Assembly (NCBI GenBank): GCA_041653595.1
Contig: JBAZFB010000001.1
Location: forward strand, 4,467-68,466
DNA length: 64,000 bases
DNA from: Candidatus Omnitrophota bacterium
GTDB lineage: Bacteria; Omnitrophota; Gorgyraeia; Pluralincolimonadales; Pluralincolimonadaceae
Direction of reading: 5' to 3'
Each line of letters begins with the position of its first letter. The stretch's first letter is position 1. Under the pieces are notes generated by a model that was not told where the DNA came from, made no database searches, and saw only the letters and a program-made list of their open reading frames with translations. A program made the position numbers and the translations under genes. Shown here piece by piece: positions 324 through 19,721 of the stretch.

Positions 324-344
324 ATATCCCGCAAAGCGGGATAT
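324..344 (-). terminator. Hairpin ATATCCCGC-AAA-GCGGGATAT just downstream of the GH1 stop, preceded by a second short hairpin (CCTGC-GAA-GCAGG); probable end of the long minus-strand operon
   Basis: Perfect 9-bp inverted repeat read directly from the sequence; on the minus strand it is followed by a T-rich stretch (TATTAGACAAAAGCTTT). Confidence 0.4.
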
Positions 345-385: not shown

Positions 386-1810
386 TCAGAAATCCAGTTT
401 TCCTGACTTGATGATTTGCTCGTATTCTCTTGCCGATCCTCGAATTGTTCGTTCCTGCGTCGTATAGTCCACCCCTATTAACCCAAATCGCGGAGCGAAC
501 CCGTCTGTCCACTCATAATTATCCAAGAACGACCAATAGAAATAACCGATCACAGGAGCCCCCTCATTCATCGCCAGGGCTACGGCCTTAAGATGTTCTA
601 AGATAAATACCGAACGCTTGGCATCATGATTTGTGCAAACGCCGTTTCCCGTGATCAAAATAGGCAGTTTGTATTTTGAAAATTTTTTGATCAACGTGTA
701 CAACCCTTTCGGATAAATTTCCCAGCCAAGGTAATTCCTCATGGCTAAAGGATCTTCTACGGCGAGCCCCTCACCTAAAATTTCAGGCAATAAAAACCCG
801 CGATTGGAAACATATTCCCGCTTAAAATAATCCAAGCCGATAAAATCCAGGGTTTTTGCTCTGGGAAGTTTTATGCTGAAAAAACCTAATATCTTCGCTT
901 TCCCCCGTATTAAGGCCTGAATAAATAAGTGATTGATCGCCTGGTCCCTTAAGCCCGCAGAGATCCGGTCCGGCAAAGAGTTGCTCGAGCGAGGCGAAAA
1001 TATGATCACCTGGTGGGCTATCCCGATCATAGGTTTATTCCAGCCTTTTTGGGCATAGGCTTCGTTGATCTTTACATAAGCCAGGACATGCGCTTCGGCT
1101 AAATTTTGCACGACTTTAAACGCATTTTCCGTTGACTTCTCCCCAGGCGGCCAACTCCCGACCATATAGCCGTTATACGCATAAGATGCCGGTTCATTCA
1201 ACGTTATCCAATAATGAACATCGCTGCCCAGAGTTTCTGTCGTTTTCCGCGCGTATCGGGCGAAAAGTTCCGGACTTTCATCCGAAAGCCATCCCCCCTT
1301 GCTCACAAACCATAAAGGGATCGTAAAATGATTCAACGTTACAATGGGCTCTAACCCCTTAGATTTCAGCGAAAGGATCATCTTGCGGTAATGCTCAAGG
1401 GCTGAGCCGTCAAATTGGCCCGGCGACGGCTCGATGCGGCTCCATTCAACGGAGAAACGATAAGCTGTAAACCCTAAAGATTGGGCGATCTTAAAATCCT
1501 CTTCAAAGCGGTTCCATTCATCACAAGCCAGTCCGGAACGCATTTTCAGGGGAACTTTCTGTTCCCACTGCCACCAGTCGTTATTGGTGTTGTTGCCTTC
1601 GACCTGATGAGAAGATGTGCCTGCCCCCCACAAAAATCCTTTCGGGAATGTAAATTCCTGCAGCGTAGGTACTGTTGTTGTTATGTTAGATCTTTCATAA
1701 GTATCGGCGCCGATATATCCCGGAACCATAAAAATAATAAGAAATAAGGAGAGGCCTGCGCAAATATTTTTTTTAACCTCATGTCCGGCTGTTTGCGGTC
1801 GGATTTGCAT
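386..1810 (-). CDS. GH1 beta-glucosidase family protein with an N-terminal membrane anchor or signal; the catalytic nucleophile Glu is replaced by Gly (ITGNG instead of I/VTENG)
   Basis: GH1 signature motifs TFPKGFLWGAGTSSHQVEG and ITLNEP are present. The nucleophile motif reads LPILITGNGVCT, with the Gly codon GGA at 647-649 on the minus strand. About 75% identical to the paralog at 11480-12874, which has SENG. Confidence 0.88.
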   Translation of the reverse strand: MQIRPQTAGHEVKKNICAGLSLFLIIFMVPGYIGADTYERSNITTTVPTLQEFTFPKGFLWGAGTSSHQVEGNNTNNDWWQWEQKVPLKMRSGLACDEWNRFEEDFKIAQSLGFTAYRFSVEWSRIEPSPGQFDGSALEHYRKMILSLKSKGLEPIVTLNHFTIPLWFVSKGGWLSDESPELFARYARKTTETLGSDVHYWITLNEPASYAYNGYMVGSWPPGEKSTENAFKVVQNLAEAHVLAYVKINEAYAQKGWNKPMIGIAHQVIIFSPRSSNSLPDRISAGLRDQAINHLFIQALIRGKAKILGFFSIKLPRAKTLDFIGLDYFKREYVSNRGFLLPEILGEGLAVEDPLAMRNYLGWEIYPKGLYTLIKKFSKYKLPILITGNGVCTNHDAKRSVFILEHLKAVALAMNEGAPVIGYFYWSFLDNYEWTDGFAPRFGLIGVDYTTQERTIRGSAREYEQIIKSGKLDF

Positions 1811-1822
1811 ATTAACCTCCTT

Positions 1823-2794
1823 TCACGAGGAGTGGCCGCCTGCTATGGTAAACCCAAGCAGTTCCTCCACCATCGATATGAGCAAAGCAGATTGTTTAGA
1901 CATGGCATCGATTACTTTCTTTTGCTCCTCATTAAGATGGCCATATGACCCGTCCTGAAGTAACGATATGTTCCCGCTGATCACTCCCAGCGGTGCGCGC
2001 AGTTTATGCGAGATAAGAGTTAAAGTATCCTGTTTTAGAAATTCCTCGCTGCGCGCTGCGGTAACATCACGCAAGATAAAAACAATGCTTAACAGCTCTC
2101 CGGCGGAATTTTTTATCAGGTCCAAATTCGCCTCTAAATATAATGCCTCCGCCGTTTCTGATTTTTGGCGTACAATATCAAATGTTTTATGCGCAATCGT
2201 TAGATCCGTAAGCGCTTCTTTACTTATAGAAACAGAATAATTCTTAAATAGCGTTTCGACCAAATTGACTTTTGCCGGATCGGTAATATTTAAGTAATTT
2301 AAGATCGCCGCATTGCTGTCTTTGATCAGGTAATCCGGGCTGCAGATGGCAATGCCATCGCTTATTTTATCGACCACTGCCTTGAATTTCTCTTTTTCAT
2401 CCAACTGCCGGAGATAATAACTTATCTTGAGTATGGACTTGACTCTTGCTAATAGTTCAACCTTATCAAAGGGCTTGGAGATAAAATCATCGCATCCTGC
2501 CTCAAGGGCTTTTACCTTGTCTTCGGTCTCCCTAAGCGCGGTTACCATGACCACCGGGATAAGGCGTGTCTTTTCATCGGCGCGCAATTTTTCCAGCACT
2601 TCTATGCCGGACATCCTGGGCATCATTATGTCCAGCAGGACCAGATCGATTTGATCGCCGGAAAGTATTTTCAGCGCTTCTTCACCGCTTGCCGCCTTGA
2701 CAATCTCATAACCCTGCGGAACAAGATACGCTTCGAGAAGTTCAACGCTTTGGAGCTGGTCATCAACAGCTAAAATTACCGGTCTGTCTTTCAT
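1823..2794 (-). CDS. Response-regulator receiver–PAS–HisKA protein with no HATPase_c catalytic domain
   Basis: N-terminal receiver motifs (ILAVDD…LVLLDIMMP…PVVMVTA), a central PAS-like region, and an H-box ISHKLRAPL. The ORF ends right after the dimerisation/phosphoacceptor region with no N/G1/G2 boxes. Confidence 0.72.
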   Translation of the reverse strand: MKDRPVILAVDDQLQSVELLEAYLVPQGYEIVKAASGEEALKILSGDQIDLVLLDIMMPRMSGIEVLEKLRADEKTRLIPVVMVTALRETEDKVKALEAGCDDFISKPFDKVELLARVKSILKISYYLRQLDEKEKFKAVVDKISDGIAICSPDYLIKDSNAAILNYLNITDPAKVNLVETLFKNYSVSISKEALTDLTIAHKTFDIVRQKSETAEALYLEANLDLIKNSAGELLSIVFILRDVTAARSEEFLKQDTLTLISHKLRAPLGVISGNISLLQDGSYGHLNEEQKKVIDAMSKQSALLISMVEELLGFTIAGGHSS

Positions 2795-2797
2795 CCT

Positions 2798-3166
2798 CTA
2801 CCCCTTGATAAATTTACTGATTTCTTTCGCGAAAGTGCGCGTATTTATCGGCTTGCCTATAAATCCGGAGTTAGATATGTCTTTTATCTCTTCCCTGCCT
2901 TCTGCCATTACGGAAGCAGTTACAAAAACAATGGGAATATCGCTTGTCTCTTTGTCTTGACGCAATATCCTGGCAGCTTCGCTACCGCGCATATCCGGAA
3001 GCCGCACATCCATAATTATGACATCCGGTTTTTCTTTCCTGACAATGGCAATTCCGCCGGAAGCATCTTGAGCTACAAATACTTCGAAGCCGGCGACCTC
3101 CAGGAGGTCTTTTTCCAGCGTCAGATTATTCACGTTATCATCGACAATTAAGACTTTCTTCCCCAT
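2798..3166 (-). CDS. Single-domain CheY-like response regulator
   Basis: LIVDDN…DVIIMDVRLPDM…IVFVTA receiver motifs across 122 aa. Confidence 0.85.
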   Translation of the reverse strand: MGKKVLIVDDNVNNLTLEKDLLEVAGFEVFVAQDASGGIAIVRKEKPDVIIMDVRLPDMRGSEAARILRQDKETSDIPIVFVTASVMAEGREEIKDISNSGFIGKPINTRTFAKEISKFIKG

Positions 3167-3167
3167 C

Positions 3168-4442
3168 TCACACCGCCTTTCTGGATATAACCGGCAAAGT
3201 AAACCTGACTTGAGTGCCTTTATTTAGCCCCTCTGATACTACGGAAAACTTCCCGCCATGCAGCTCAACCAGCTTCTTGGAGAGCGGCAAACCGAGACCG
3301 GTTCCCTCAGTTACCCGGGAATATGGAGTATCGACACGGAAAAACCCTTCAAATATTTTCCCCATGTTTTCAGATGCGATCCCGGCCCCCGTATCCCATA
3401 CCACTATTTCTATCTCGGAATCAACCTTTCTCGTAGAGGCCCGCATTCCTATTTTACCACCCTCGGGAGTAAATTTTACCGCGTTTGAAAGCAGGTTGTA
3501 AAGTATCTCTTTTACCCTGAGCTCATCCGCCTCAATATTCGGCAGATCTTCGGTTATTTCAAGCAACATTTGAAGCTTCTTTTTACTGACCATATCCGCT
3601 ACCAGCAGTGAAATGTCATTTAACAGGCTTTTCATGGGTAAGCTGGATAATGCCAGCTTCATCTTCCCCGCTTCAACTTTTGACATATCAAGTATCTGAT
3701 TTATCAGTAAGAGGAGATGTTTTCCGCTGGTTAGAACATATTCAACGTATTTTTTCTGCTTCTCATTAAGCGGCCCGAAAGTCTCGTCGTATAATATCTC
3801 GGAGAAACCGTTAATGGAGTTAAGCGGGGTCCTGAGCTCATGCGACATATTGGCCAGGAACTCGGATTTTGCCCGGGTGGTACGTTTTAACTCGGCGGCC
3901 AACTCCTGTAACTCTTCATGGGCTTTTTCCAGGCCTTTTTCTATCTCCCTGCGCCCGGTAATATCCTCGATAGCCAGGAGGATGATCCGCTCCTTGCCAA
4001 GCGCTCTTTCAATTTGCCGGGCATTCAAAAGCATTATGCGCCTGCCGATGGTAGTAAAATCGTGTTCAACCTCATAGTTATCGAAGGTTGCCTTTTGGGG
4101 AAGGATGGTTTCCAGCAGTTCCCGCAGCTTGGGGATATTCCACTGTTTATTGCCCAGGTCATAAATAAGTTGTCCCACGGTCTCTTCGGGTTTTACCTTA
4201 AAGACATCATAGAAGGAGCGGCTGACGGAGACCACCCTTAGATCTTGATCCAAAGCGATTAGGGATTCACGCACGGTGTTGATGATGCTCTCGGCATAGT
4301 TGCGGGCATCTTGGGCTAATCGCTCTGTTTTCTTACGCTGTTCAATTTCTTGGTGAAGCTTCTTAACATTCCTTCTTTCTGCGACGGTACGGATTCCTGC
4401 CTGATTCTTACATAATTTTTTGTTTTTCTTTATATCTTTCAT
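3168..4442 (-). CDS. Cytoplasmic sensor histidine kinase (coiled-coil/PAS–HisKA–HATPase_c); start probably at the internal Met (MKDIKK)
   Basis: H-box MSHELRTPLNSI, G2 box GTGLGLPLSKKLVELHGG, and no transmembrane segment. The start was trimmed to remove overlap with the GT4 stop at 4456. Confidence 0.82.
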   Translation of the reverse strand: MKDIKKNKKLCKNQAGIRTVAERRNVKKLHQEIEQRKKTERLAQDARNYAESIINTVRESLIALDQDLRVVSVSRSFYDVFKVKPEETVGQLIYDLGNKQWNIPKLRELLETILPQKATFDNYEVEHDFTTIGRRIMLLNARQIERALGKERIILLAIEDITGRREIEKGLEKAHEELQELAAELKRTTRAKSEFLANMSHELRTPLNSINGFSEILYDETFGPLNEKQKKYVEYVLTSGKHLLLLINQILDMSKVEAGKMKLALSSLPMKSLLNDISLLVADMVSKKKLQMLLEITEDLPNIEADELRVKEILYNLLSNAVKFTPEGGKIGMRASTRKVDSEIEIVVWDTGAGIASENMGKIFEGFFRVDTPYSRVTEGTGLGLPLSKKLVELHGGKFSVVSEGLNKGTQVRFTLPVISRKAV

Positions 4443-4455
4443 GGTTTCGCCTCTT

Positions 4456-5814
4456 TTAAAGTTTCCCTTCCTTGGTCGTGCCATTAGATCGGGGGTCTTC
4501 GCTCTTTTCCGTCGTATCTTTGATCTTTACGGGTTCTGTTTTCTGAAAATTTCCTTCGAACACTGATGTGGCAACGGACCTGATATAATTGCTGTAAATA
4601 TCCCACTCCGCTTTCATGCGCCACTGGAAAAGATACCGCGAACTGTTTTTCTTGCCCAGGGAAACAGATTTTCTTGATCTGATTTTATCATAAATTTCCA
4701 ACATGTGTTTTGCGGCAGACTTAATCGGGTATTTCTGTACCGTCATTCTTACGATCTGCTTCATGGCTAGCAACTCTTCAGGAGTCCGGGATAAAGACCA
4801 GGCAAGGGCATCAACAAAACTTTGCTGGTCCATCTCATTGAGCAACCGGCCGTTGTGGTAATCTTCTACGACTTCCCGCGCTCCCGGAGCATCCAATGCT
4901 ACCACCGGAACCCCTGCCGCCATGGCTTCAATAAGAACGATCCCTTGCGTTTCGCTTAATGAAGCGAACGCGAAAACATCCATGGCAAAATAAGCATCAA
5001 CCAGATGCTGATACTGCAAAACTCCGGTTAAATGTAACCTTTTTTCAAGGCCTGCCTTCACAAAGGCGTCCTTGATCATTTTTTCAGATGGCCCTTTGCC
5101 AACGATAAGGGCATGGACCCTTGGATCTTTTTTTAATAATTCGATCATACAATTTGTCAGAAATTCCAGATTCTTTTCCGGAGACAGCCGCCCGGCATGG
5201 CCGACTACTTTAGCATCTGGAGGGATGTTATTCCGCTGGCGAAAAGCTTTTCCATCGCCTTTTGAAAAACGTTCCGCGTCTACCCCTGTCGGGATAACCT
5301 CCATGGGGGTCTTAACACCTCTTTTAAGTAAGATATCCTGCACGCTTTCGCTGGGCACAATTACCTGGTCCACCAAATTGGAATATCCGGCGGCAAGCTT
5401 GACCATAAATCGCTTCACTCCCTCATTGTGAACCGGCCAATCATGCACGTACTGCTCAAACATACAGTGATAAGTAAATACAAGCGGTATGGCGTGCTGT
5501 CGACTGAGCCGTAATGCAAAATCTCCCATGAAAAACGGGCCGTGGCTATGCACAATATCCGGCACGAATTCTTTCATGTATCGCTTTAAGAGCCTAGAGA
5601 TCGGAAAATTAATGGAAAAAATAGTCCCCCTAAATTTTTGGATGGCCGGAATCCGGATAACGCCCGGTTCCTCTGTCGGCGCCCCCCCAAAGGCAGGAGT
5701 AACGATCAAAACCTCATGCCCTAAACTTCTAAATGCCTCGCTAAAAGAATAAACCGATTGCTCTAACCCTCCCACCATCGGAAAATAGGTATTCGTCATC
5801 ATGAGAATATTCAT
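4456..5814 (-). CDS. GT4-family glycosyltransferase (retaining GT-B fold)
   Basis: The EX7E region SETQGIVLIEAMAAGVPVVALD and the overall GT4 pattern. The start overlaps the stop of the upstream gene by 1 nt. Confidence 0.85.
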   Translation of the reverse strand: MNILMMTNTYFPMVGGLEQSVYSFSEAFRSLGHEVLIVTPAFGGAPTEEPGVIRIPAIQKFRGTIFSINFPISRLLKRYMKEFVPDIVHSHGPFFMGDFALRLSRQHAIPLVFTYHCMFEQYVHDWPVHNEGVKRFMVKLAAGYSNLVDQVIVPSESVQDILLKRGVKTPMEVIPTGVDAERFSKGDGKAFRQRNNIPPDAKVVGHAGRLSPEKNLEFLTNCMIELLKKDPRVHALIVGKGPSEKMIKDAFVKAGLEKRLHLTGVLQYQHLVDAYFAMDVFAFASLSETQGIVLIEAMAAGVPVVALDAPGAREVVEDYHNGRLLNEMDQQSFVDALAWSLSRTPEELLAMKQIVRMTVQKYPIKSAAKHMLEIYDKIRSRKSVSLGKKNSSRYLFQWRMKAEWDIYSNYIRSVATSVFEGNFQKTEPVKIKDTTEKSEDPRSNGTTKEGKL

Positions 5815-7271
5815 TATTTATCCTTTAGTTCTATGAGCGCTTTCCTGGCCGCCACGCATATCGCGTCGTAATGATCTTGCGCGCCCATGGACAGCCCTTC
5901 TTTTTCCAGATCTTCGGGGAGGAGCGGCTTGCCGAATCTCACCCTGATCGGGTGGCGTTTGGGATACTTTGCCGTGCTGGGCCATGCCTCATAAGCTCCT
6001 TCTATAGCCACAGGCACAAGCTTTGCTCCCGTCTCCTTAGCCAGGATACCGAACCCTTTTTTAAATTTCCCGACTTTGCCGGTAGTACTGCGCAACCCTT
6101 CCGGGAAATAACACAAACCTTTACCGCGTTGTAATACTAAATAAGCGCTGCGCAGCGCCTCCAGAAAATGCGTTGAATAATCAAATGGAATAAGTCTTTC
6201 CATTTTTACGATATCCCTTAAAAAACGGGATTTTACAAACGGCCTAAAATAATACGGTATGAATAAGAAGTAAAACATTTGCAGCACCGGCCTGCGCGGC
6301 AGGCAAGCGTTAATGGCAGGCCCGTCAAGATCGCTCGTGTGGTTTGGATACAGGATATAAGCCCCTTCTTTCGGCACGTTCTGTTCTCCTTCTGACTTAA
6401 TACTGAAAAACAATCTGAAGATCAAACAATCTATGGCTGTTATGCTGAATCTAAGCAGCCAGGCGAAAAAACCGGTGCTGAATTCGAGCGCTCCCAGATG
6501 CTCTTCTTTCGGAAGGACTTGTAAATGTTTTTTCCAGTAGTCCGGACTTAAAGGTAAACTTTTATCCTCCTCCGGGCGGATGCCTTTTGCTCCTTTTAAC
6601 GCATCCTTTATCCCCAGAATGAGGTCTTTTACAATAAAGGCCCGCGAGATCGCCTCATCTTTTATATCGGCGCTAAAAGCCAGCTCAAGGCGCGAAGCAA
6701 GCTCTATCCTGCCTAATGAATCTACGCCAAGGTCCAGCTCCAAAGAATCCTCAAGTATTATCGGTCTTTTAATACCGCTTTGCTCCTTTAGGCATTTTAA
6801 TATTTTTATGCCGGTCCCGGATCCTATCAACAGTTGGTCCGCGGCCGTTAGCTCCCCCGTTACCGGAAGAGCGCCTTCTATTCCTGCCCTCACCCTAGGC
6901 TCATATATTTCCTTGATCGCATTTCTATCTAACTTACCAAGCAGGTCATACGGTAGATCATCAAGCGTAATAGTAAAACCTTTAAGCCTTTTATAAATAG
7001 GGAGCGATGGCAAGACATTATCAAATCTCTCCTTAATGGCTAAATGCAGGTTCACTGAGGCGAATTTCCTGAAATTATCAAGATCCGGCCGGATGATAGC
7101 CCAAAGAATTTTGGATCCCTTTACATCATCCATTCCGGAGACTGTAAAGACGCACATCTCTGTAATAGGGGCGGCCTTTTTATAGAACTCCTCGATCTCT
7201 TCCGGGTAAATTTTCTTCCCCGACTTCAATATGATAAACTCTTTAAATCTGGCCACAAGGTCTTTTATCAT
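5814..7271 (-). CDS. Carrier-protein (ACP-like)–PlsC-type acyltransferase carrying only the C-terminal subdomain of an AMP-binding enzyme at its N-terminus
   Basis: N-terminus matches the AMP-binding C-terminal subdomain (…KIYPEEIEEFY…). Phosphopantetheine-attachment motif LELDLGVDSLGRIEL. PlsC motifs NHTSDLD (HX4D) and FPEGLRS. Truncated paralog of the 911-aa protein at 14860-17595. Confidence 0.75.
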   Translation of the reverse strand: MIKDLVARFKEFIILKSGKKIYPEEIEEFYKKAAPITEMCVFTVSGMDDVKGSKILWAIIRPDLDNFRKFASVNLHLAIKERFDNVLPSLPIYKRLKGFTITLDDLPYDLLGKLDRNAIKEIYEPRVRAGIEGALPVTGELTAADQLLIGSGTGIKILKCLKEQSGIKRPIILEDSLELDLGVDSLGRIELASRLELAFSADIKDEAISRAFIVKDLILGIKDALKGAKGIRPEEDKSLPLSPDYWKKHLQVLPKEEHLGALEFSTGFFAWLLRFSITAIDCLIFRLFFSIKSEGEQNVPKEGAYILYPNHTSDLDGPAINACLPRRPVLQMFYFLFIPYYFRPFVKSRFLRDIVKMERLIPFDYSTHFLEALRSAYLVLQRGKGLCYFPEGLRSTTGKVGKFKKGFGILAKETGAKLVPVAIEGAYEAWPSTAKYPKRHPIRVRFGKPLLPEDLEKEGLSMGAQDHYDAICVAARKALIELKDK

Positions 7272-9931
7272 TTACCCGCCTCATATTTCAATTCAATAGA
7301 ATTTGTTGCGGGTGTAATTATTACGCTCTTAAAACCGGGTAATCGGATATCGATCGGCGGTTCTTTCGCAAGCCATTGTCCGCGCCATTCGACAAGGATA
7401 TTTTCCCCTCGTAGTTTTATGGAAATTTGAATATCCCCAAAACTTGTCGGCGCGGGGCCAAACGCGATCGTCTGGTTTTTCTCCAGCCAGGCTCGCGGGA
7501 TCCCCGAACATAAAATTAATCGGTTGCCTTCTTCGCGCACAAAACAATTCCTTATCATTAAAACCCATTCCGCCGCGGCCCAGACATGCTGCCCGTCTCC
7601 CATACATCCCCCGCCTGTACGCGGATGTACCGACTCAGGCCATTGTCCTGTTGGCGAAGCCAATTTAGCCACTGCTGTCATCAAACCAAAATACCTGGGA
7701 TCACCTGCGCGCAAGAGCGCCTGTGATAAATGTAACGTAAGGTAAGGATTGATCCCTGAATGGGTCATGTCATGAAAAAAACCGCCGTGGACTAAACAAT
7801 TTTTCATTAAATAATCGGCTGTATCTAAGACCCTTGGATCGTTATGCTCAAAAACTCGAAGCGGATAGCTGGCGACCAAAGAGCCGATCGCTCCCGAATC
7901 TAAACGGCGATAAGGAGAGGCCGGTATCGCGGGTCTTTTTAAACGAACTTCTACTTTCTTTAAACTTTGATCTATGCTCTCCAATAATGCCTGCGATTCC
8001 GTTTCAAAATGAGCGGCCTCATCATTATCCTTATAAGCAGCGCACAAAAAGGCCGCTGCTTTCAATCCCGCAACCGCCCAAAAGTCATCCCAGTAATAAA
8101 AATCATTCGGCCCCAAATGCTCAGCGCTAAATCCGGACGGCAATAAACCTGCGTGAGGGTATGGCCCATTGGCGGGCAGTCGTTTTTTATAGATCCACTT
8201 GCCCGCTTTATAGATCGATTTTCCCCATTCTTTAGGCGGGAGATTTCCTGTCATCTCACAATACCGACGCATTATCCACAATGCCTCGCCGTTAGAATCC
8301 CATTCTCCTTCCTGAGAGAGGAAATAACCTTGGGCTGTCTGACGGGAGCGGAAACAATCCAATGAGCGCCGGACACGTTCCTTTAACCCGACGCATAGCA
8401 AACCATGTAATATAAAAGCGGCATCGCGAAACCAAAACCGCCGGTAAATATAAGGCCCGGGATAAACTTCCTTGGGAGAATGCAAAATCATGGTGCGGAT
8501 GGCAGCATCGTAAAGGAACTGAAAATCTTTATCGGGGATCTGCAATGAACACGCGCCCTGGAGGCTTTTCTTCCACGCAAGCTTCGCAGTTTCCCGGCGG
8601 CTGGAATAGGAATCTTTTTCAATTTTATTCTTAGTTAAAGGCACAGAAACGGTAATTTCTTGCGGTTCTCCCGCTTTCAATATAAAAATGGCCGCAGAGG
8701 TGGCCATGCCGACTTTACATGAAATTTCTTTTTCATCTTCCTTGGCTGACAAGCAGCTATAAACATCTCCTCGCTGATAATCTGAAAATACGCATCGATC
8801 CGGAGGTTTATCAAAATATACGAAGTTTTCTCGATTTACTTGCCAGCCTGACGAGCCTTCGAGGAGAGTAATATTATTTATAAAACTCACGCCTTCAGGG
8901 TTATAAGGCCTGAGAGAAACTACTAACTGCGCATTAACAGAAGCAGAACCTCTGATATTAACCTGGCAGATCGGCACTTCGGCTGAACCGGTAACTTGCG
9001 CATTTAATTGAAGCTTTAATTGCTCGAGACTGAATTCTGTAATCACGCAAAGATTGTCATCGAAACACAGTTTTTGCGATACATTTGGATTGCGCGACGG
9101 GATCAACGGGTCCCCCTCTTTTGGAATGATCCAAACATCAATAGACCAACCGTCATAACGGGGAGTAACAAGGCCGCAAGGATCTACAATAGGAAATTCG
9201 GTGCTGTCAGGAACGCCCAAAGCGGTCCAATTTCTATGTGTAAGATTAATTTGAGTTAATGAAAATGACCGCGGGATAAAGGCCTCGCACTCCGGATCAT
9301 ATTGGCATTCCACCCAATAAGGCCAGATCCAATCAAGGTTATGCTGAATGGCTATGCTATTGATCAGGCCCCGGGCATGCAAGACCACGCCTGAACGCAA
9401 TAGTTCAGTCGGAATCGCCACCTCTGAGGGTTGCGTGAAATTCTGTAATTGAGAAATAAATTTAATCGGGTCTAAAAACCCCCGCCGGCGCGCGACGGTC
9501 CTGACTATGAATTTTAACGGTGACCATTTCCATTGCGCAAAACTAAACTTTTCCTTCGATAAAGTCCTGAAAACCCACCATTTAAAACAAACAAAGGTAA
9601 ATATACCTGTTAATATCGTGGCAATGATCAAAGCTAAAAAAACAGCCCCGGGCCGCACATTGAGAATGGTTTGATTTGTAAAAACATTAATTCCCAAAGC
9701 TAAAAAATTAATCAGCGTATACCGGCCAACCTCAGCGTACGATTGTTGGTTGTGTTTAAACGTCCAAAATTTATTAAGCAAATACCCGACAATGCCCGCG
9801 CACGTAAAGGAAATCCCTTTAGATATGCTAAAAGACAAAAAATGAAATAAAATATAATAGACGCTAAAGTCTGTCGCATTGACGATAGTCCCTGCGATTA
9901 AAAACCGGATTATTTCTTTTTTAGTCTTCAT
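7268..9931 (-). CDS. Fusion of an N-terminal GtrA-like 4-TM domain to a large six-hairpin (alpha/alpha)6 glycoside-hydrolase-like domain (GDE_C, GH63 or GH15-like superfamily)
   Basis: N-terminal approx. 120 aa: IRFLIAGTIVNATDFSVYYILF…LLNKFWTFK, the GtrA pattern. C-terminal approx. 750 aa carry W-x-RD-xxF-type motifs (FWFRDAAFILHGLL) and GDGQHVWAAAEW. ATGA overlap with the downstream gene. Confidence 0.62.
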   Translation of the reverse strand: MKTKKEIIRFLIAGTIVNATDFSVYYILFHFLSFSISKGISFTCAGIVGYLLNKFWTFKHNQQSYAEVGRYTLINFLALGINVFTNQTILNVRPGAVFLALIIATILTGIFTFVCFKWWVFRTLSKEKFSFAQWKWSPLKFIVRTVARRRGFLDPIKFISQLQNFTQPSEVAIPTELLRSGVVLHARGLINSIAIQHNLDWIWPYWVECQYDPECEAFIPRSFSLTQINLTHRNWTALGVPDSTEFPIVDPCGLVTPRYDGWSIDVWIIPKEGDPLIPSRNPNVSQKLCFDDNLCVITEFSLEQLKLQLNAQVTGSAEVPICQVNIRGSASVNAQLVVSLRPYNPEGVSFINNITLLEGSSGWQVNRENFVYFDKPPDRCVFSDYQRGDVYSCLSAKEDEKEISCKVGMATSAAIFILKAGEPQEITVSVPLTKNKIEKDSYSSRRETAKLAWKKSLQGACSLQIPDKDFQFLYDAAIRTMILHSPKEVYPGPYIYRRFWFRDAAFILHGLLCVGLKERVRRSLDCFRSRQTAQGYFLSQEGEWDSNGEALWIMRRYCEMTGNLPPKEWGKSIYKAGKWIYKKRLPANGPYPHAGLLPSGFSAEHLGPNDFYYWDDFWAVAGLKAAAFLCAAYKDNDEAAHFETESQALLESIDQSLKKVEVRLKRPAIPASPYRRLDSGAIGSLVASYPLRVFEHNDPRVLDTADYLMKNCLVHGGFFHDMTHSGINPYLTLHLSQALLRAGDPRYFGLMTAVAKLASPTGQWPESVHPRTGGGCMGDGQHVWAAAEWVLMIRNCFVREEGNRLILCSGIPRAWLEKNQTIAFGPAPTSFGDIQISIKLRGENILVEWRGQWLAKEPPIDIRLPGFKSVIITPATNSIELKYEAGK

Positions 9932-10030
9932 ATCAGTTTTAAAGGGAATTCCTCCTTATGGCCGTCATAATACCGCCGAACGCCCCCGCGAATCATTGCC
10001 GGGGGGCGTTCGTGAGAATCTAGTCCTCAG

Positions 10031-10201
10031 CTATTTCTTTTTGCCGAGAAAAAAATACAGCACCATGCCGATAACGGGCAAAAAGAGTATCAGGATGATC
10101 CATAATGCCTTTTTGCCTGTCTCCATTGAACTTTTTACTGCATCAAGGATGGCAATAATATCTAGAACCAAAACAACTAGCCCTACTAGCATGCTTCCCA
10201 T
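10031..10201 (-). CDS. Small (56-aa) membrane protein with a PLDc_N-like domain; absent from the supplied ORF track because it is shorter than 60 aa
   Basis: A GGAGGA ribosome-binding site is followed by ATG. The translation MGSMLVGLVVLVLDIIAILDAVKSSMETGKKALWIILILFLPVIGMVLYFFLGKKK fits the PLDc_N (cardiolipin-synthase N-terminal) family pattern. Confidence 0.5.
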   Translation of the reverse strand: MGSMLVGLVVLVLDIIAILDAVKSSMETGKKALWIILILFLPVIGMVLYFFLGKKK

Positions 10202-10257
10202 GCGTCCTCCTTTTCCGTCTGCCGATAGGCAGACTTTATTTCCTTAGGTATAGTAAG

Positions 10258-11472
10258 CTATTTTCCCTCCGCCACAAGCCCGGGCGGAGCCTTGTGCCAC
10301 TTATACCCTTCTATCGCGTCATCATATCCGCGCTCAAAGAGCCTCTTCATTTCCTGCTTATCGAACATCTCCTGTTGATTAGGCTTAAAATCTTCCGGAA
10401 TATACGCTAAATTGTAATCCCATCCTTTTTCCTTCGCGAATGAGTATAGATTGTACGTGTCCCCGCCCATTTTTGACGCTGTGGCGGTCTCGATCAGGCG
10501 CGAGGTTATCGCAGTCAGATTGTCTTCCACCTGTTTCGAGTGCGGCGACATATAACAACAATTCAGGATATATAACCGCGTTCTGAATCCCTTGGGATCG
10601 ATCCCGGAAGATCGCGCCGCGGATCCCGCGCCTTCCAATAACGGATAAATATAAAAAACCCCTCCGATGACCCCGCCATCGGCATGCATCTCGTCATAGC
10701 GCCTGCCGCCGGCTTCGACTTGAAAATAGACCGGAGGAAGCATAGCCGGATACGAGCATGAGGCCAGGATTATTTTGCGGAATACCTTCACCGAATCCGG
10801 GCCTCCTTTGGATGCAAGCGCTCCCATATCCCATATAACAAACTCCTGAGCATCAAGATCCGAGGTCCCCACATATAGCCTGCGCCCCTTCGCATGCTCT
10901 TTGGCGATCTTCGCCATCAGATCCTCATTTACCATATCATCTATCTTTTTAGAGAACAGGGATGAGCTGTTCACGGAATTTCCGAATAGGATGCTAAAGA
11001 TGCCCTTTTGTTTCACCACGTCTTTGGTCGATATCGAGGTAAACAGGTCCGCAAGCTGGTCTTCAGATTCTTTTCCTGAAAACACGGCAATGGCTAGGAG
11101 CGACCCGCTTGAGTAGCCTGTAACTATTTTAAATACCGGCCGGGAGCCTTCCTTTGACCACCCTCTCAATAACCCTATACCGTAGGCGCTGTTCGATACG
11201 CCGCCTCCGATAATGAGCGCGGGATAGGTCTTTATACCGTCAACCATATAGTCCGATTTACCTTCTTCTTTAAACGAATCTGCCAGGCTTTTCCGCATAA
11301 AGAGAGAATCGGCCTTATACGTATAGTAGCGTAGATCCGGCATACCGACAACGACGGCCTTCCCGACAAGATTTTCCGGTACGGCATGCCGCACATGGGC
11401 GCAACCTGATGATGCCAGGAAGCAGGATATTGTCACCAGCGCATAAATAACCTTACGATATCGACTCTTCAT
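10258..11472 (-). CDS. Patatin-like phospholipase, lipoprotein
   Basis: GGGVSNSAYGIGLLRG oxyanion motif, GYSSGS (GxSxG), a DGG catalytic Asp, and a lipobox LASSGC. Confidence 0.85.
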   Translation of the reverse strand: MKSRYRKVIYALVTISCFLASSGCAHVRHAVPENLVGKAVVVGMPDLRYYTYKADSLFMRKSLADSFKEEGKSDYMVDGIKTYPALIIGGGVSNSAYGIGLLRGWSKEGSRPVFKIVTGYSSGSLLAIAVFSGKESEDQLADLFTSISTKDVVKQKGIFSILFGNSVNSSSLFSKKIDDMVNEDLMAKIAKEHAKGRRLYVGTSDLDAQEFVIWDMGALASKGGPDSVKVFRKIILASCSYPAMLPPVYFQVEAGGRRYDEMHADGGVIGGVFYIYPLLEGAGSAARSSGIDPKGFRTRLYILNCCYMSPHSKQVEDNLTAITSRLIETATASKMGGDTYNLYSFAKEKGWDYNLAYIPEDFKPNQQEMFDKQEMKRLFERGYDDAIEGYKWHKAPPGLVAEGK

Positions 11473-11479
11473 AATTCTC

Positions 11480-12874
11480 CTATGGGATCATTATTCCCGA
11501 ACGGATGATTTCTGCGAATTTTTCTGACGATGGCCGTATTATTCGTTCCTGCGTCGTATAGTCCACCCCTATCAACCCAAATCGCGGGACAAACCCTTCG
11601 TTCCATTCATAATTATCCAAGAGCGACCAATAAAGATAACCGATGACAGGGGCCCCCTCTTCCATCGCCTGCGCCACAGCCTTAAGATGCTCTACGATAA
11701 ATGCCACACGCTCGGTATCATCGTTGGTAGTAATCCCGTTTTCTGAAACCAAAAGGGGCAATTTGTACCGCGAAAATTCTTTAAGGAACATATACAATCC
11801 CTTCGGATAAATTTCCCATGAAAGAAAATTATATTTACCTGAATGACGGAACTGTTCTGCGGCTTCGCGCGCATTACCTGAAATTTCCGGGAATCCAAAC
11901 CCGCGGCTGGTGACAAAAACCCGCGTGTAATAATTCAAACCTATAAAATCCAGGGTTTTTCCTCTCGGCAAGTGAACATAGAAAAATCCTAAAATACAGG
12001 CTCTTCCCTGTACCAAAGCCTGGACAAATAATCGGTTAAACATCAAATCGCAAGAACCTGTCGCAACCCGGTCCATTAACGAATAGCCCGATGAAGCCTG
12101 GAATACGAGCACGCTTTGGGCAATCCCGACCATAGGCACTTCCCAGCCTTTTTGAGCATAGGTCTCTTTGATCTTTTCATACGCCAGGACATGCCCCAGA
12201 AGTAAATTTTTGAAAACTTTTAATGTTTTATCCGTTGATTTTTCTCCCGGCGGCCATTCGCCGCTCATATATCCCCTGAAGGCGTGGACAACCGGCTCAT
12301 TCAGCGTTATCCAATAATGGACATCGCCTCCGAGAGCATCGGTCACTTTCTGGGCGTATCTGGCAAATAGTTCCGGGGTCTTCTCTGAAAGCCACCCTCC
12401 CTGGTGCGCCAGCCATACGGGAACTGTAAAATGATACAAAGTCACAACAGGCTCTATCCCCTTTGACTTAAGCGAATTGATGACCTCGCGATAATGATCC
12501 AAGGCAGAGGCGTCAAATTGGCCTTCCCGGGGCTCAATGCGGCTCCATTCAATGGAGAAACGGTGGGCTGTGTGTCCTAAAGTCTGGGCAAGCTTAAAAT
12601 CCTCTTCAAAACGGTTCCATTGGTCGCACGCCTGGCCTGAACGAGTTACCGGGGGCCGGGTTTGTTCCCACTCCCACCAATCATTATTAGTATTATTCCC
12701 CTCGACCTGGTGAGAGGAGGTGGAAGCTCCCCATATAAAATCTTTCGGAAATGTAAACTTGTGCGGTACCGTTTTTGTTATTGCCGTTTTATTGATACCG
12801 GCACATCCGCTAAGAAGAAAAACAATCAGCGCGAGGACAATAGAACAACGGCTTTTTTTCGAATGAATTCGCAT
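11480..12874 (-). CDS. GH1 beta-glucosidase, lipoprotein; catalytically intact paralog
   Basis: TFPKDFIWGASTSSHQVEG, ITLNEP (acid/base) and LLVSENG (nucleophile) are all present, plus a lipobox LLSGCAG. Confidence 0.9.
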   Translation of the reverse strand: MRIHSKKSRCSIVLALIVFLLSGCAGINKTAITKTVPHKFTFPKDFIWGASTSSHQVEGNNTNNDWWEWEQTRPPVTRSGQACDQWNRFEEDFKLAQTLGHTAHRFSIEWSRIEPREGQFDASALDHYREVINSLKSKGIEPVVTLYHFTVPVWLAHQGGWLSEKTPELFARYAQKVTDALGGDVHYWITLNEPVVHAFRGYMSGEWPPGEKSTDKTLKVFKNLLLGHVLAYEKIKETYAQKGWEVPMVGIAQSVLVFQASSGYSLMDRVATGSCDLMFNRLFVQALVQGRACILGFFYVHLPRGKTLDFIGLNYYTRVFVTSRGFGFPEISGNAREAAEQFRHSGKYNFLSWEIYPKGLYMFLKEFSRYKLPLLVSENGITTNDDTERVAFIVEHLKAVAQAMEEGAPVIGYLYWSLLDNYEWNEGFVPRFGLIGVDYTTQERIIRPSSEKFAEIIRSGIMIP

Positions 12875-12906: not shown

Positions 12907-13101
12907 TTATTTTCGAATTAAACCTAAAAACCCGACTATGGCAGCAGCAAATCCGCCGATCAGTAGCCATAGCGCCTTATCTGTAGGCGCACCCGTGAAA
13001 AAGCGCGAGACGTCGGAACTTGCTGAGTGGTAGGCGCTAAACCCAAAAACTAGCAAGATAATCCCTGCGACCAGAAGTGCGGCTGATGCACCCTTATTCA
13101 T
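12907..13101 (-). CDS. Small two-TM membrane protein (DUF3185-like)
   Basis: 64 aa with two hydrophobic helices separated by a short polar loop. Confidence 0.4.
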   Translation of the reverse strand: MNKGASAALLVAGIILLVFGFSAYHSASSDVSRFFTGAPTDKALWLLIGGFAAAIVGFLGLIRK

Positions 13102-13290: not shown

Positions 13291-13947
13291 ATGTTTAGCC
13301 GTAAGGGAATGGTTTTGGCGGGGATTTTGAGTGCAGTCTTAATTTTCGTATTCGCGCGATCCGGGTTTTGCGTAACGGCGCCCGGTACGGACAAGGTGCG
13401 TCAAGTCTCGGGAGAGATCGTGTGGATCGACCTCAAACAAGGTACATTGCAACTTAGGCAGGAGGGAAACCGCAAAAAAGCGGTTGAGTACAGGATCAAC
13501 GCGCATGACACGTTTGTTACCGATCCGGCGCGCAAGGAATTCCTCACGCTGAACGACCTGCGTGTAGGCCAGGATGTAACATTAGAGCTTCCCGCCGTCC
13601 GCGACTGGAAGATCGTCAGTAAGATAATCGCCGAACCCTTGCCTGTCTTCGAAATAGTTACGGGGGATGTCGTAGCTATAGATACGGAAACAGGGATGAT
13701 GACCTTGCAGGTAATAGGCCGGGGACAGAACGAAGTGTCATATTTCGTATTTCAGCCGGATGATATCTACTATATGAAGAGCCCGAGCAAAGAACCCGTG
13801 CACCTGCAGGTCAAGCGAGGGGACAGGGTAAAAGTTGAATTCCTGCCGGATAGCGGAAAACAGCGCGCGCACTATATAACGCTGATGCCTGCTCCGGCGG
13901 CGGGGTCTACCACGACTACAACGACGACGACTACAACGGTTAAATAA
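13291..13947 (+). CDS. Secreted hypothetical protein with an internal duplicated module and a C-terminal deca-threonine tail
   Basis: A signal peptide, a ribosome-binding site AAAGGAGG before the ATG, two similar segments (GEIVWIDLKQGTLQL and GDVVAIDTETGMMTLQV), and a C-terminus …AAGSTTTTTTTTTTVK. Confidence 0.55.
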   Translation: MFSRKGMVLAGILSAVLIFVFARSGFCVTAPGTDKVRQVSGEIVWIDLKQGTLQLRQEGNRKKAVEYRINAHDTFVTDPARKEFLTLNDLRVGQDVTLELPAVRDWKIVSKIIAEPLPVFEIVTGDVVAIDTETGMMTLQVIGRGQNEVSYFVFQPDDIYYMKSPSKEPVHLQVKRGDRVKVEFLPDSGKQRAHYITLMPAPAAGSTTTTTTTTTTVK

Positions 13948-14859: not shown

Positions 14860-17595
14860 TTATATGCTCCGTTTCCCCTTGAGCTTTATAACCTCTTCCC
14901 TTATGCCAAAGGCTATTGCCTCATATTCATCTTTGACCCCCGATCTTAGCCCCTCTTTCATGAGCTCGCCAAAATCAAAAGGCCTTCCAAAAGTTACTTT
15001 GATCGGATGAGGCCTCGGAAGCGGCTTTGTCCTCGGCCAGGATTCGTATGAACCCGTCATTAATACGGGAACCAGAGGGACATTCAGCTCTTTCGCCAAT
15101 ATCCCGACCCCTTTTTTGAATTCCTTAATATTTCCGTCGATAGTCCTTTGGCCCTCCGGGAAAATACAGATTATCTTGTCATTTCGAAGAACATAAGAAG
15201 ATGCCTGCATAGCTTCCACGAAGTGCATACCCGGATCGATGGGAATGACCCTGATATATTTTACGATATTTCTGATTAAGAACTGTTCGAAATAGGCCCT
15301 GAAACCTACGAAGAAAAGACTCTTTCGTAAACTCGCAGGCATAGAAGCCTCAATGATAAACGCGTCCAGGTAACTGCCGTGGTTGACGCACAGGATGCAC
15401 TTTCCCGTTCTCGGGATATTTTCTGTCCCGAAAACCTCAAGCCGCCAGATCACCCTGAAGACAAGGCGTAAAATTTCAGAGAATAGCAGCATCCCTAAAA
15501 TTGCCATCCGGTTCGGCGCCAGATTGACCTTTTTTATTATATCTTCGGCGGGTTTTTCATTTAAGATCTCATTCCATAGAGCGCGGCTCTTGACCTGCGG
15601 AATGAGCTCTCCCTGGACCCCTTCACCCGGGACCAGCCTCTCTATCCCGAGAATAAGTTCTTTAACGGTAGAGGCCTTAGCCATTACCTCATCCGGTATG
15701 GTAATGTTAAGCGCCTGCTCCAACATCACCATCAGCTCCACGCGGCCCAGCGAATCGATACCTAGATCTAATTCCAGATGATCGGCCGGGGATATCCCCC
15801 TTTTTAACTTCGCATGTTTATTAAGGGCTTCTATTATCCTGCTGCTGACACCGGAAGAGAGCAACCTGAGGTCCTCATCTGTAGCGGGAATTTCCTCCGC
15901 CGCGCCGTCTAATTTTATACCTTTAAGCTCATCCAGATATTTTTTCTTAACTTCATATCTTTTTATCTTGCCTAACCGCGTGCGCGGTATGCCCTCCTTT
16001 ACAATAATAAAGCCCTTGATGCGTTTGTAGGGAGCAAGTCCTTCAGACAGGTTTTCCAGCTCCCACCTGATCGTACTGTTAAGATCGACCTCTCCCTTCT
16101 CGCGGCAATAGTCAGCGTCAGGCACCACTACGGCGGACAGCCTCTCTTCCTCCGTTCCGCCGACGCCAAGGACGCATATTTCTTTAATGTAAGGGCTCTT
16201 GGTATAATGGGATTCTACCTCTTCGGGATAGATGTTTTTCCCGGAGCTTAAAACAATTATCTCTTTCTTCCTACCTGTAATATAAAGATAGCCGTCCTTG
16301 TCTATACGGCCAAGGTCGCCGGAGTAAAACCAGCCGTCCTTTAAAACGCTCGAGGTCTCGTCCGCCCGTTTATAGTAGCCTTTCATGACATTGGGGCCTT
16401 TGATCACCACCTCGCCCATACCCGCTGCGTCGGGACTGTCAATTTTCAATTCCACATCCGGGATCACTCTGCCGACAGAACCGATCTTCGGCTTCTTTAA
16501 CGGGTTGAAAGCTACTACTGGCGATGTTTCGGTAAGTCCGTATCCTTCAAGTATAGTGAAACCTATTTTCACAAGGAATCTCGCCGCTTCTTCATTTAAC
16601 TTTGCGCCGCCGCAGGCAAAAAATCTTAAAGCCCGCCCGAATGGCCGGTGTATTGCCGGCAGGGCAAACCTGCTTAAATTTATTCCGCTAAACCTTCTTA
16701 TTAGCCATAATATCTCTATCAGCCCTAAAAGAGGCATCCTTAACATAAACGGTATCTTCTTTATCTTATCCGATATACTCATATAAAACAGGGAAATGAG
16801 CTGCGGCACGCCTACCAATACCGTTACCCCTGCCTCCCTCATCCGGTCCAGCAATTCATCGCTCCTAATGCTCGAAGTATACGTGACCCCCGCGCGGCAG
16901 AAAAGAGGCGTGATCAGCGTGATCATAAATGGGTAGGCGTGATGCAACGGCAATATCGATATGAAAATATCCTTATCCGAGAAGAGTTTCAGCTTGTCGA
17001 TACTTTGAAAATCAGAGTAAATATTCTCATGCGTGAGCATCACCCCTTTTGGCTTATCGGTGGTGCCTGATGTATAGATAAGCGAAGCGATATCTTCGGA
17101 AAGGACCTCGGGCCATGCGGCGCCTTCAGATGAAGTAAGTTTTACCTGAGACAGGCCTATAAGGTTATCCTTTTGAATATCAAGGTCCAGGATGACGATC
17201 TTGTCCAGCCCTGACTTTATCTTATTAATATTTTTCGCCTGAAAAACGGCATAGGAGACAAATATGACCTTTGCGGCGCAGTCATTGATGAGATTTCCTA
17301 TCTCTTGTTCGGTCAGCTGCGGATCTAAAGGAACGCAGGTAAGGCCCGCAGCCATTATGCCTAAATAGATCACCGCCCATTCCGGACGGTTCTCTAAACA
17401 TATAGCCGCGAAGTCCCCCTTCTTAAAACCCTCTTTAATAAGAAACGCGCCTATCCTCAGGGAGAGGTCTTCTGTTTGCCCATATGTCCATCTCTCCCAG
17501 GCAGGGCCTTTTTTTATCTGAAGGCACACCCTGTCTGAAAACCGGGAAGAAATTTGGGCAAATATCTTATGGATGACCATATCTTCCTTTTTCAT
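14860..17595 (-). CDS. Tri-domain acyl-activating enzyme (AMP-binding)–ACP–PlsC-type acyltransferase (Aas-like but self-contained)
   Basis: AMP-binding motif [16 protein letters not shown]; carrier motif [15 protein letters not shown]; PlsC motifs VNHGSYLD and FPEGQRT. The start was set at MKKEDM, whose ATG overlaps the TGA of the upstream hydrolase (ATGA at 17592-17595). Confidence 0.85.
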
Positions 17596-18359: not shown

Positions 18360-18432
18360 CGCCTTCTCCCCGGATATAAAATGTCCGCCCCGTTAGAGGC
18401 GGACATTTGTATTGTGAGAACCGATTATGCAT

Positions 18433-19707: not shown

Positions 19708-19721
19708 CCTTATGTTCCTCC

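Follow-up and report, generated by a model that had tools for sequence, protein, structure and literature searches.

A conserved X750-GT4 gene core in an Omnitrophota cluster with a probable role in making or reshaping membrane glycolipids

In the PlcP-Agt pathway of phosphate-stress remodelling, a phospholipase C and a GT4 glycosyltransferase together make MGDG/GADG (PMC4796936). The present study concerns a gene cluster in a Candidatus Omnitrophota metagenome-assembled genome (MAG), located on a stretch of 64,000 nt that was analysed as a whole (hereafter the window), and best read as a possible functional analogue of that pathway built from different parts. On the minus strand at positions 386-12874 lies a tightly packed run of ten genes which, in order of transcription, encode a GH1 protein (GH1a), a patatin-like lipase, a PLDc_N mini-protein, a GtrA membrane domain fused to an unannotated region of about 750 amino acids (aa; GtrA-X750), a truncated ligase carrying an acyl carrier protein (ACP) domain and a PlsC acyltransferase domain (ACP-PlsC), a GT4 glycosyltransferase, a histidine kinase, a CheY-like receiver, a Rec-PAS-HisKA protein and a second GH1 protein (GH1b). 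As in PlcP-Agt, a lipid-type GT4 is coupled genetically to phospholipid-processing enzymes, and the phosphodiesterase/EEP domains found at the GT4 in 24 related loci could supply diacylglycerol. Unlike PlcP-Agt, the window encodes no PlcP-type metallophosphoesterase, the cluster itself has ACP-PlsC and no phosphodiesterase, the related loci carry other domains (Phosphodiest and Exo_endo_phos), and the described pathway has no counterpart of X750 and its GtrA or DedA partners, which are obligatory here.

Other parts of the cluster have described relatives of their own. GtrABC O-antigen glucosylation uses a four-helix membrane domain of the same GtrA family, but neither GtrB (GT2) nor GtrC is found among the cluster genes or their recurrent neighbours, and GtrA is here fused to a 750-aa enzyme predicted to be cytoplasmic and paired with a GT4. 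Escherichia coli Aas resembles the ACP-PlsC protein in joining a PlsC acyltransferase to an acyl-AMP ligase and in using ACP-bound acyl groups; in the Omnitrophota protein the domains come in the opposite order and include the ACP itself, and the in-cluster copy of 485 aa has only the C-terminal subdomain of the ligase, without the adenylation core. The closest solved structure to GH1a (1vff; E 1e-98, about 60 bits above the next match) is BGPh of P. horikoshii, a membrane-associated enzyme that hydrolyses alkyl-beta-glycosides (PMC8790579). BGPh is archaeal and has no lipoprotein signal, whereas GH1a has a lipobox and GH1b is without a nucleophile.

The core of the cluster is probably the sign of an undescribed route by which membrane glycolipids are made or reshaped. 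What matters most here is the module that X750, the GT4 and a flippase-like protein form across phyla, together with the unannotated X750 family, rather than the bracket formed by the two GH1 genes. That family (at least 2500 clusters at 50% identity) has a lipid-type GT4 and a flippase-like protein as constant partners in Omnitrophota, Desulfobacterota, Nitrospinota and Gammaproteobacteria, both methanotrophic and others. Should the product prove to be a glycolipid, the module would represent an unrecognised, environmentally abundant route to non-phosphorus or remodelled membrane lipids, and probably a new CAZy-type family too. A carrier-PlsC protein without an adenylation core and a natural nucleophile-to-glycine GH1 are of enzymological interest in themselves. 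Omnitrophota are uncultured, widespread and often ultra-small, and to our knowledge almost nothing is known about their membranes; literature searches on Omnitrophota glycolipids and on GtrA-hydrolase/GT4/DedA clusters turned up nothing relevant.

The X750-GT4 core

A set of 80 loci recovered with the 887-aa GtrA-X750 protein was compared by tblastn and clustering of open reading frames (ORFs). X750 is followed by GT4, directly or after ACP-PlsC, in every locus whose contig extends far enough, including loci from Gammaproteobacteria, Pseudomonadota (L075), Desulfobacterales, Desulfobacteraceae and Deltaproteobacteria MAGs, and the pairing spans Desulfobacterota and Nitrospinota as well. GtrA is fused to or adjoins X750 in 54 of the 80 loci, and a DedA/VTT protein is encoded directly 5' of X750 in all five proteobacterial/desulfobacterial loci with upstream sequence. 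The invariant core is X750 plus GT4, and GH1, patatin and the kinase triad are variable or mobile accessories. This fixed core consists of two enzymes predicted to face the cytoplasm, a GT4 of lipid-acceptor type and an X750 of glucoamylase/phosphorylase fold, the latter tethered to the membrane by the fused GtrA and partnered with DedA/VTT in other phyla.

Two lipid-related arms accompany the core. The 485-aa ACP-PlsC protein lies between X750 and a short GT4 in 42 Omnitrophota loci, this one included, and in the 24 loci mentioned above Phosphodiest and Exo_endo_phos domains either form part of the GT4 protein (for example in a 1231-aa protein of L007) or come after it; only three loci have both arms together. 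In about 30 loci the gene upstream of the core encodes, interchangeably, patatin or a GH1 of either subclade, and PLDc_N, DUF3185, an alpha/beta-hydrolase and a 964-aa ligase-ACP-PlsC protein are recurrent neighbours. Among the loci recovered, the closest relative is L081/L082, with cluster proteins 76-91% identical to those here; its gene order is patatin, GtrA-X750, ACP-PlsC, GT4, kinase, CheY, Rec-PAS-HisKA, DUF3185, orf218 and a GH1a orthologue, with no GH1 upstream; the GH1 bracket is specific to the genome studied here. An earlier note, made from the sequence of this stretch, had drawn the whole run as one glycolipid or lysolipid module. Synteny upholds the GtrA-X750/ACP-PlsC/GT4 unit in about 40 Omnitrophota loci, and the central genes are indeed of glycan and lipid type; the GH1 bracket, triad and patatin vary, and neither GH1 nor patatin is a fixed member.

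In L007 (12532-16227, plus strand) and L079 (13353-15923) the GT4 is accompanied by Phosphodiest (NPP-type) and Exo_endo_phos/PGAP2IP-like domains. As a lead, this combination of GT4 with ethanolamine-phosphate-transferase-like and PGAP2IP-like domains may recall enzyme types of glycosylphosphatidylinositol-anchor biosynthesis. A PDB sequence search with the phosphodiesterase/EEP region returned only an unnamed EEP structure.

The GtrA-X750 gene (7268-9931, minus strand) encodes GtrA in residues 1-121 (about 9569-9931) and X750 in residues about 131-887 (7268-9541). The four-helix GtrA domain (PF04138) scores 54.4 bits against a cut-off of 26.1 over residues 9-121. X750 gave no Pfam, NCBIfam or PDB sequence match when 43 family members were scanned, even at E <= 5. 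The family is large, with 4317 and 4818 matches to two different queries in the 90% collection and 2506 representative clusters at 50% identity, and its members are named only 'GtrA family' or 'hypothetical' in their sources. Methylobacter or other cultured Gammaproteobacteria have close homologues, P0248 for example. A profile of 81 diverse representatives matched a GH15 glucoamylase in the PDB weakly, through a YHxxWxRD motif (E 0.014). An AlphaFold2 (AF2) model built on the alignment of 81 diverse representatives reached a predicted local distance difference test score (pLDDT) of 95 and a predicted template-modelling score of 0.95, and consists of an N-terminal beta-sandwich, an (alpha/alpha)6 barrel and a C-terminal beta domain; an AF2 model of the full 887 aa from a shallow alignment (74-84% identity) had a pLDDT of 57 and was discarded.

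Foldseek matched the X750 model to PDB structures at E values from 1e-19 to 1e-13, with template-modelling (TM) scores of about 0.5-0.66 and sequence identities of 10-13%. The top match was the GH15 glucodextranase 1ug9 (E 1.2e-19), accompanied by the bacterial glucoamylase 1lf6 (TM 0.59/0.66), 9ju0 and dextran dextrinase, and followed by GH94 and GH65 phosphorylases, among them the GH94 domain of cyclic glucan synthase. On the strength of this model we are confident in assigning X750 a GH15/GH65/GH94-type fold (clan GH-L-type), and the 'GtrA-glycosidase fusion' of the earlier note was right at fold level; in its reaction X750 could be a hydrolase, a phosphorylase or a transglycosylase. X750 shares with GH15 enzymes and GH65/GH94 phosphorylases the three-part architecture, and with GH15 the YHxxWxRD motif; like cyclic beta-1,2-glucan synthase (GT84-GH94, 8rf0), the cluster pairs a glycosyltransferase with a barrel enzyme at the membrane. 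X750 is set apart from these enzymes by its low identity, the absence of any Pfam/NCBIfam GH match and the GtrA fusion, and from GH15 by an invariant Asp (YYWDD), not Glu, at the presumed acid position as judged from motif spacing.

GtrA proteins have an N-in/C-in topology, and positive residues flank the GtrA helices; on these two grounds X750 is predicted to face the cytoplasm. GtrA and X750 are separate matches 0-500 nt apart in about a dozen Omnitrophota loci (L036-L052, L062), and L046 and L054 have a stand-alone GtrA gene 3' of GT4. The fusion must therefore have been made or broken more than once.

The GT4 gene (4456-5814, minus strand) encodes a predicted retaining glycosyltransferase with the two-domain GT-B profile (Glyco_transf_4, 127 bits; Glycos_transf_1, 115 bits) and an EX7E motif (ETQGIVLIE at 288-296). 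Its best NCBIfam family, matched end to end at 141 bits, is alpha-monoglucosyl-diacylglycerol (MGlcDAG) synthase (NF049988), followed by a PEP-CTERM/XrtA-system exopolysaccharide (EPS) glycosyltransferase and, third, GlcNAc-phosphatidylglycerol synthase. The closest solved structures are MshA and PimA, with BshA and sucrose-phosphate-synthase-like enzymes also among the matches. The GT4 probably acts on a lipid acceptor.

The ACP-PlsC gene (5814-7271, minus strand; Pfam PP-binding and Acyltransferase) encodes the C-terminal subdomain of an adenylation domain (residues 1-125), a carrier domain with the motif DSL184 and an LPLAT domain with the motif HTSDLD311. The PP-binding match scores 24.8 bits against 20.8, the HX4D motif of PlsC lies within PF01553 (61 bits against 23), and the DSL is kept in orthologues; NCBIfam reports an acyl-ACP-phospholipid O-acyltransferase (Aas-type) together with a CoA-ligase C-terminus. 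The intact DSL and HX4D motifs bear out the proposal that this acyltransferase has a carrier domain of its own. The protein is 38% identical to residues 492-961 of a full-length 964-aa paralogue (14860-17754, minus strand; Pfam AMP-binding, AMP-binding_C, PP-binding and Acyltransferase), with the adenylation remnant aligning to residues 492-607; the complete AMP-binding core is missing in the 485-aa protein and present in the paralogue. The truncated form is kept in 39 loci, with the remnant as conserved as the ACP, and is therefore a stable architecture, not debris. A reasonable idea is that the 964-aa paralogue, which is also encoded in the cluster neighbourhood of L004, L014, L031 and L035, would charge this carrier domain in trans.

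A proposed membrane glycolipid locus and its rivals

We give the reading of the cluster as a locus for membrane-glycolipid synthesis and remodelling about an even chance of being correct. It is preferred because the best curated families of the GT4 are lipid glycosyltransferases, with PimA near, because the membrane partner of X750 is obligatory, because phosphodiesterase/EEP or acyltransferase arms and a lipase accompany the core, and because the closest solved GH1 is a membrane-bound alkyl-beta-glycosidase. Under this reading the GT4 would place a sugar onto diacylglycerol or a phospholipid headgroup at the inner leaflet, X750 would trim, elongate or phosphorolyse that lipid-linked sugar, and the GtrA or DedA partner would hold or flip the lipid. 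The truncated ligase-ACP-PlsC protein, its carrier domain charged in trans by the nearby 964-aa paralogue, would re-acylate a lyso-lipid or acylate the glycolipid, and exported GH1 and patatin would degrade and recycle the glycolipid and its acyl chains outside the cytoplasm. The PAS kinase, CheY-like and Rec-PAS-HisKA proteins may modulate the system by phosphorelay, with no dedicated transcription factor, and GH1b would be a copy confined to this lineage and dead as a hydrolase, serving as a binding protein or having lost its function very recently.

Several points weigh against the glycolipid reading. Every function is assigned from homology and synteny. The earlier suggestion that the GT4 could glycosylate diacylglycerol agrees with its best curated match, but the score falls far under the cut-off of the MGlcDAG-synthase family (141 against 400 bits) and under every equivalog cut-off; MshA, the best solved relative of the GT4, uses a soluble acceptor, and the structural relatives of X750 act mostly on soluble glucosides. 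GH1, patatin, PLDc_N and the triad shift or go missing in many loci, so the case for their membership in one pathway is weak. Many GH1 homologues have only 424-430 aa and may lack the N-terminal signal, which blurs the argument from export, and generic promoter and terminator scans of the cluster did no better than shuffles.

A bolder version of the glycolipid reading, which we consider quite unlikely in its full form, would make X750, GT4 and flippase-like GtrA/DedA an undescribed phylum-spanning pathway to a new class of membrane glyco(phospho)lipid. X750 would then be no hydrolase but a phosphorylase or transglycosylase of lipid-linked glycosides, and would assemble the head group or set its size at the inner leaflet, like GH94 in cyclic-glucan synthase; the two lipid arms (phosphodiesterase/EEP fusions, and a carrier-linked PlsC loaded in trans) would feed or edit the anchor, and GH1b would partner the exported product as a natural glycosynthase-like or lectin-like protein.

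The same mobility of the accessories fits a loose juxtaposition, in which a three-gene core merely lies beside an unrelated phosphorelay and exported hydrolases that scavenge nutrients or the lipids of prey or host, the ligase-ACP-PlsC protein serving Aas-like salvage of exogenous fatty acids or lysolipids. GH1 and patatin swap or are missing, PLDc_N and DUF3185 move, the closest relative is ordered differently and is without the upstream GH1, and the triad adjoins the core in only seven of the 80 loci and in the two of the closest relative. The PlsC domains match Aas-type acyl-ACP-phospholipid acyltransferases best, and GH1a and patatin bear lipoprotein-type signals, as scavenging would have it. 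We nevertheless regard this explanation as unlikely, if worth keeping in view: for all the rearrangements, dozens of genomes keep the accessories within a few kb of the core (loci L035 and L031, for example), neighbouring genes in the window overlap or have very short gaps between them, and a PlsC-GH1 fusion protein exists.

A product linked to polyprenyl phosphate is improbable. Here the core would use polyprenyl-phosphate-linked sugars to modify a glycan of the cell surface, such as O-antigen, EPS or a teichoic-like polymer, in the manner of GtrA proteins in GtrABC systems, with X750 editing the lipid-linked intermediate, as the GtrA domain (54 bits against a cut-off of 26), the EPS glycosyltransferase ranked second for the GT4 and the PEP-CTERM proteins encoded a few kb upstream in the window might suggest; DedA/VTT proteins, moreover, are implicated in undecaprenyl-phosphate recycling. 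Neither the cluster nor the related loci, however, encode a GtrB-type GT2, GtrC, a polymerase, Wzx/Wzy or an initiating phosphoglycosyl transferase, and the company of an acyltransferase, patatin and phosphodiesterase/EEP domains speaks for glycerolipids. Finally, a cycle of a soluble glycoside, with the GT4 as synthase and X750 as GH15/GH65-like hydrolase or phosphorylase of a compatible solute or storage oligosaccharide (trehalose, glucosylglycerol or kojibiose-type), would accord with the structural neighbours of X750 (glucoamylase, glucodextranase, and 2-O-alpha-glucosylglycerol, kojibiose and maltose phosphorylases), with soluble-acceptor enzymes (MshA, BshA, sucrose-phosphate-synthase-like) among the GT4 matches and with the predicted cytoplasmic location of both proteins, but is very improbable given the fusion or adjacency of X750 to GtrA or DedA/VTT membrane proteins, the ACP-PlsC gene between X750 and GT4, the fusion of GT4 to phosphodiesterase and EEP domains and the lipid glycosyltransferases that head its curated matches.

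The GH1 pair

GH1a (464 aa, a predicted beta-glycosidase; 11480-12874) and GH1b (474 aa; 386-1810), both on the minus strand, match the GH1 profile PF00232 over its full length at 298 and 288 bits, respectively, with a cut-off of 22.6 bits. Neither reaches the GH1 beta-glucosidase equivalog TIGR03356 (298 and 325 bits against a cut-off of 478.5), and these profile matches place both proteins in the GH1 family with no assignable specificity. GH1a keeps both catalytic Glu residues (NEP192 and ENG378) and has an LSGC lipobox; GH1b keeps the acid/base residue (NEP205), has an N-terminal signal or anchor segment, and carries Gly388 in place of the catalytic nucleophile. All 122 aligned sequences have the acid/base Glu of the T(L/I)NEP motif.

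The two genes are less alike than the earlier note had estimated: rather than about 90% in DNA, they are 70.8% identical over aligned bases and 62% identical in protein. In an alignment of the pair with their 120 best homologues, each protein is nearest to another sequence (GH1a to P0046 at 89%, GH1b to P0002 at 82%), the identity between the two is only 60.5%, and they fall in different GH1 subclades. Because GH1a and GH1b lie in separate subclades, each with closer orthologues elsewhere, the duplication must be old. A recent duplication framing the cluster, as had been proposed, is ruled out by these identities and subclades and by the absence of the bracket even in the closest relative.

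The near-identical stretches reported at 430-550 and 11530-11640 do exist as part of a 3' tract of about 160 nt with 85-88% identity, and do not extend to the rest of the gene. Over the last ~160 nt (430-590 against 11520-11680) GH1b and GH1a are 86.8% identical, so that the tract of GH1a is nearer to that of GH1b than to that of any GH1a orthologue (maximum 83%); comparisons across the paralogues between genomes give 70-82%. Identity at synonymous codons is 0.84 in the tract against 0.60 for the whole gene. Gene conversion of the whole gene is excluded, the unusual likeness being confined to this tract, which may itself be a short conversion tract, a signal that rests on few nucleotides. The two GH1 genes form direct repeats flanking the cluster, and the closest relative has the DUF3185-orf218-GH1a block at the opposite end; this block may have been relocated by recombination between the GH1 copies.

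The glycine at the nucleophile position of GH1b was noted correctly: GH1b has ITGNG in the place of the SENG of GH1a, the Glu of (S/T)ENG is present in each of the 119 homologues from other sources, and the only one of the 120 homologue clusters with Gly is this genome's own. Of 141 highly conserved columns, GH1b departs from the consensus at five, and four of these fall within or next to conserved active-site motifs, namely N327D, Y329F and T330K (NYYT to DYFK) and E388G. Since these four changes are coordinated, they cannot be one base-call error, and a sequencing error is not supported. Nor is a decaying pseudogene supported, as the ORF is intact, the five departures are within the range of the homologues (mean 2.3, standard deviation 2.0, maximum 9), and a relative-rate comparison with P0002 showed no acceleration (31 against 22 unique changes, p = 0.27). 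Judged by its sequence, the GH1b gene is intact and its catalytic centre has been specifically remodelled, a state found in one genome only.

With its nucleophile missing, GH1b cannot be a normal retaining glycosidase. It could be a binding protein, an enzyme of altered chemistry or a case of very recent loss of function. Engineered GH1 glycosynthases, such as Agrobacterium Abg E358A/S/G, carry comparable replacements, and natural GH1 pseudo-enzymes are known in the Klotho domains. GH1b resembles the former in its retained acid/base Glu and its Glu-to-Gly nucleophile, the very exchange by which glycosynthases are made, which is the sequence prerequisite only, and differs in being natural, restricted to a single genome and changed at three further positions of the NYYT motif; we know of no activated alpha-glycosyl donor in vivo.

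Many homologues of the GH1b clade (P0023-P0043 and others) have 424-430 aa and cover only 89% of the query. These shorter proteins are probably without the N-terminal signal or anchor region that both copies of the window have, so that location may differ among orthologues. One GH1 homologue, P0052 (631 aa, on a 2.6-kb ENA contig), is an in-frame fusion of PlsC and GH1 with no signal peptide; its PlsC domain is 32% identical to that of the cluster, and only one such fusion was seen. P0052 could be either a Rosetta-stone link or an assembly or frameshift artefact, and it ties the acyltransferase to the GH1 clade only weakly.

Accessory genes, boundaries and neighbourhood

The co-directional, tight arrangement that the earlier note had described is confirmed by the ORF reading. 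Its count of eleven genes holds if a co-directional 64-aa DUF3185 protein (13101-12907), whose gene sits 32 nt upstream of GH1a, is included; ten lie within 386-12874. The overlaps (ATGA at 7268-7271 and 1 nt at 5814) are both real, and the remaining gaps are 1-12 nt, except for 56 and 99 nt on either side of PLDc_N. Pfam annotation agrees with the domains first listed, and a domain and motif scan found the catalytic motifs that it covered intact in the cluster enzymes other than GH1b. A hairpin of 10 bp is indeed present at 324-344 (minus strand), 42 nt 3' of the GH1b stop codon, as reported; as a terminator it is a weak candidate, with a tail (UAUUAUUAG) that is poor in U and not a clean U-run, and a folding energy of -24.5 kcal/mol for the surrounding 86 nt that is only modestly below that of shuffles (z = -1.9).

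The kinase triad follows the GT4 in seven of the 80 GtrA887-anchored loci and in L081 and L082. It comprises a soluble PAS-HisKA-HATPase histidine kinase of 438 aa (3168-4484; the true start may be the ATG at 4442) with the H-box SHELRTPL at 214, HATPase_c and no hydrophobic segment, a single-domain CheY-like receiver (2798-3166; Response_reg, 82 bits), and a Rec-PAS-HisKA protein without ATPase domain (1823-2794; H-box SHKLRAPL at 262), all on the minus strand and recognised by Pfam; the last is kept in its full-length form of 320-323 aa in relatives. Pfam scans of the three proteins found no output or DNA-binding domain. The control of the cluster by its own two-component system, as first suggested, is unproven because the triad has no DNA-binding output and the kinase no membrane segment; transcriptional control and a phosphorelay with proteins as its targets are equally likely. 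Orthologues of the kinase, 81-88% identical, are encoded 3' of GT4 in L001, L006, L015, L016, L017, L031, L058 and L081. Kinase length is 438 aa here, 418 aa in L082 and 560 aa, with an extra PAS domain, in L081 (5978-7660), and extra partial kinase-like segments lie between GT4 and kinase in L015, L016 and L017, which suggests repeated gain and loss of PAS domains.

The patatin-like lipase (10258-11472, minus strand; PF01734, 56.5 bits against 27.7) has the motifs GYSSG119, DGG265 and GGG89, is a probable lipoprotein judging from its SSGC sequence, and had no match in a PDB sequence search. The mention of two lipases in the cluster was an overstatement, as the PLDc_N protein (56 aa; 10031-10201, minus strand; PF13396, 55.7 bits) is a two-helix membrane peptide with no catalytic motif; it is kept upstream of the core in many Omnitrophota loci. 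The DUF3185 protein (12907-13101, minus strand), also a two-helix membrane protein, is preceded by AGGAGG, a good ribosome-binding site, and is 70-87% identical in 23 related loci, where it usually lies directly 5' of GtrA-X750; the Pfam label was recorded for the L081 orthologue.

Beyond the cluster, an alpha/beta-hydrolase of 255 aa (17592-18359, minus strand; Hydrolase_4 and Abhydrolase) has relatives (38-49% identical; 81% in L035) that follow GT4 in about 17 loci. The TTG start of the 964-aa ligase overlaps this gene by about 160 nt, and probably lies further upstream than the true start, since the alignment with homologues begins only at residue 37-57; the ligase also has hydrophobic stretches within its adenylation domain (residues 263-352). 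Between the ligase and the cluster, orf218 (13291-13947, plus strand) encodes a secreted protein that has two beta-barrel repeats of CusF-like type and, C-terminally, ten threonines in a row. This protein recurs at 38-46% identity in many loci and at 76% in L081, where it is co-directional with the cluster; in the window it is inverted. Further upstream of the cluster, positions 19156-22233 (minus strand) encode a LacI-type regulator, one or more PEP-CTERM proteins and a 183-aa CBM_4_9-like protein. In L081 the LacI/PEP-CTERM/CBM_4_9-like block lies 3' of the cluster (16899-20585), with the 182-183-aa protein in three paralogous copies.

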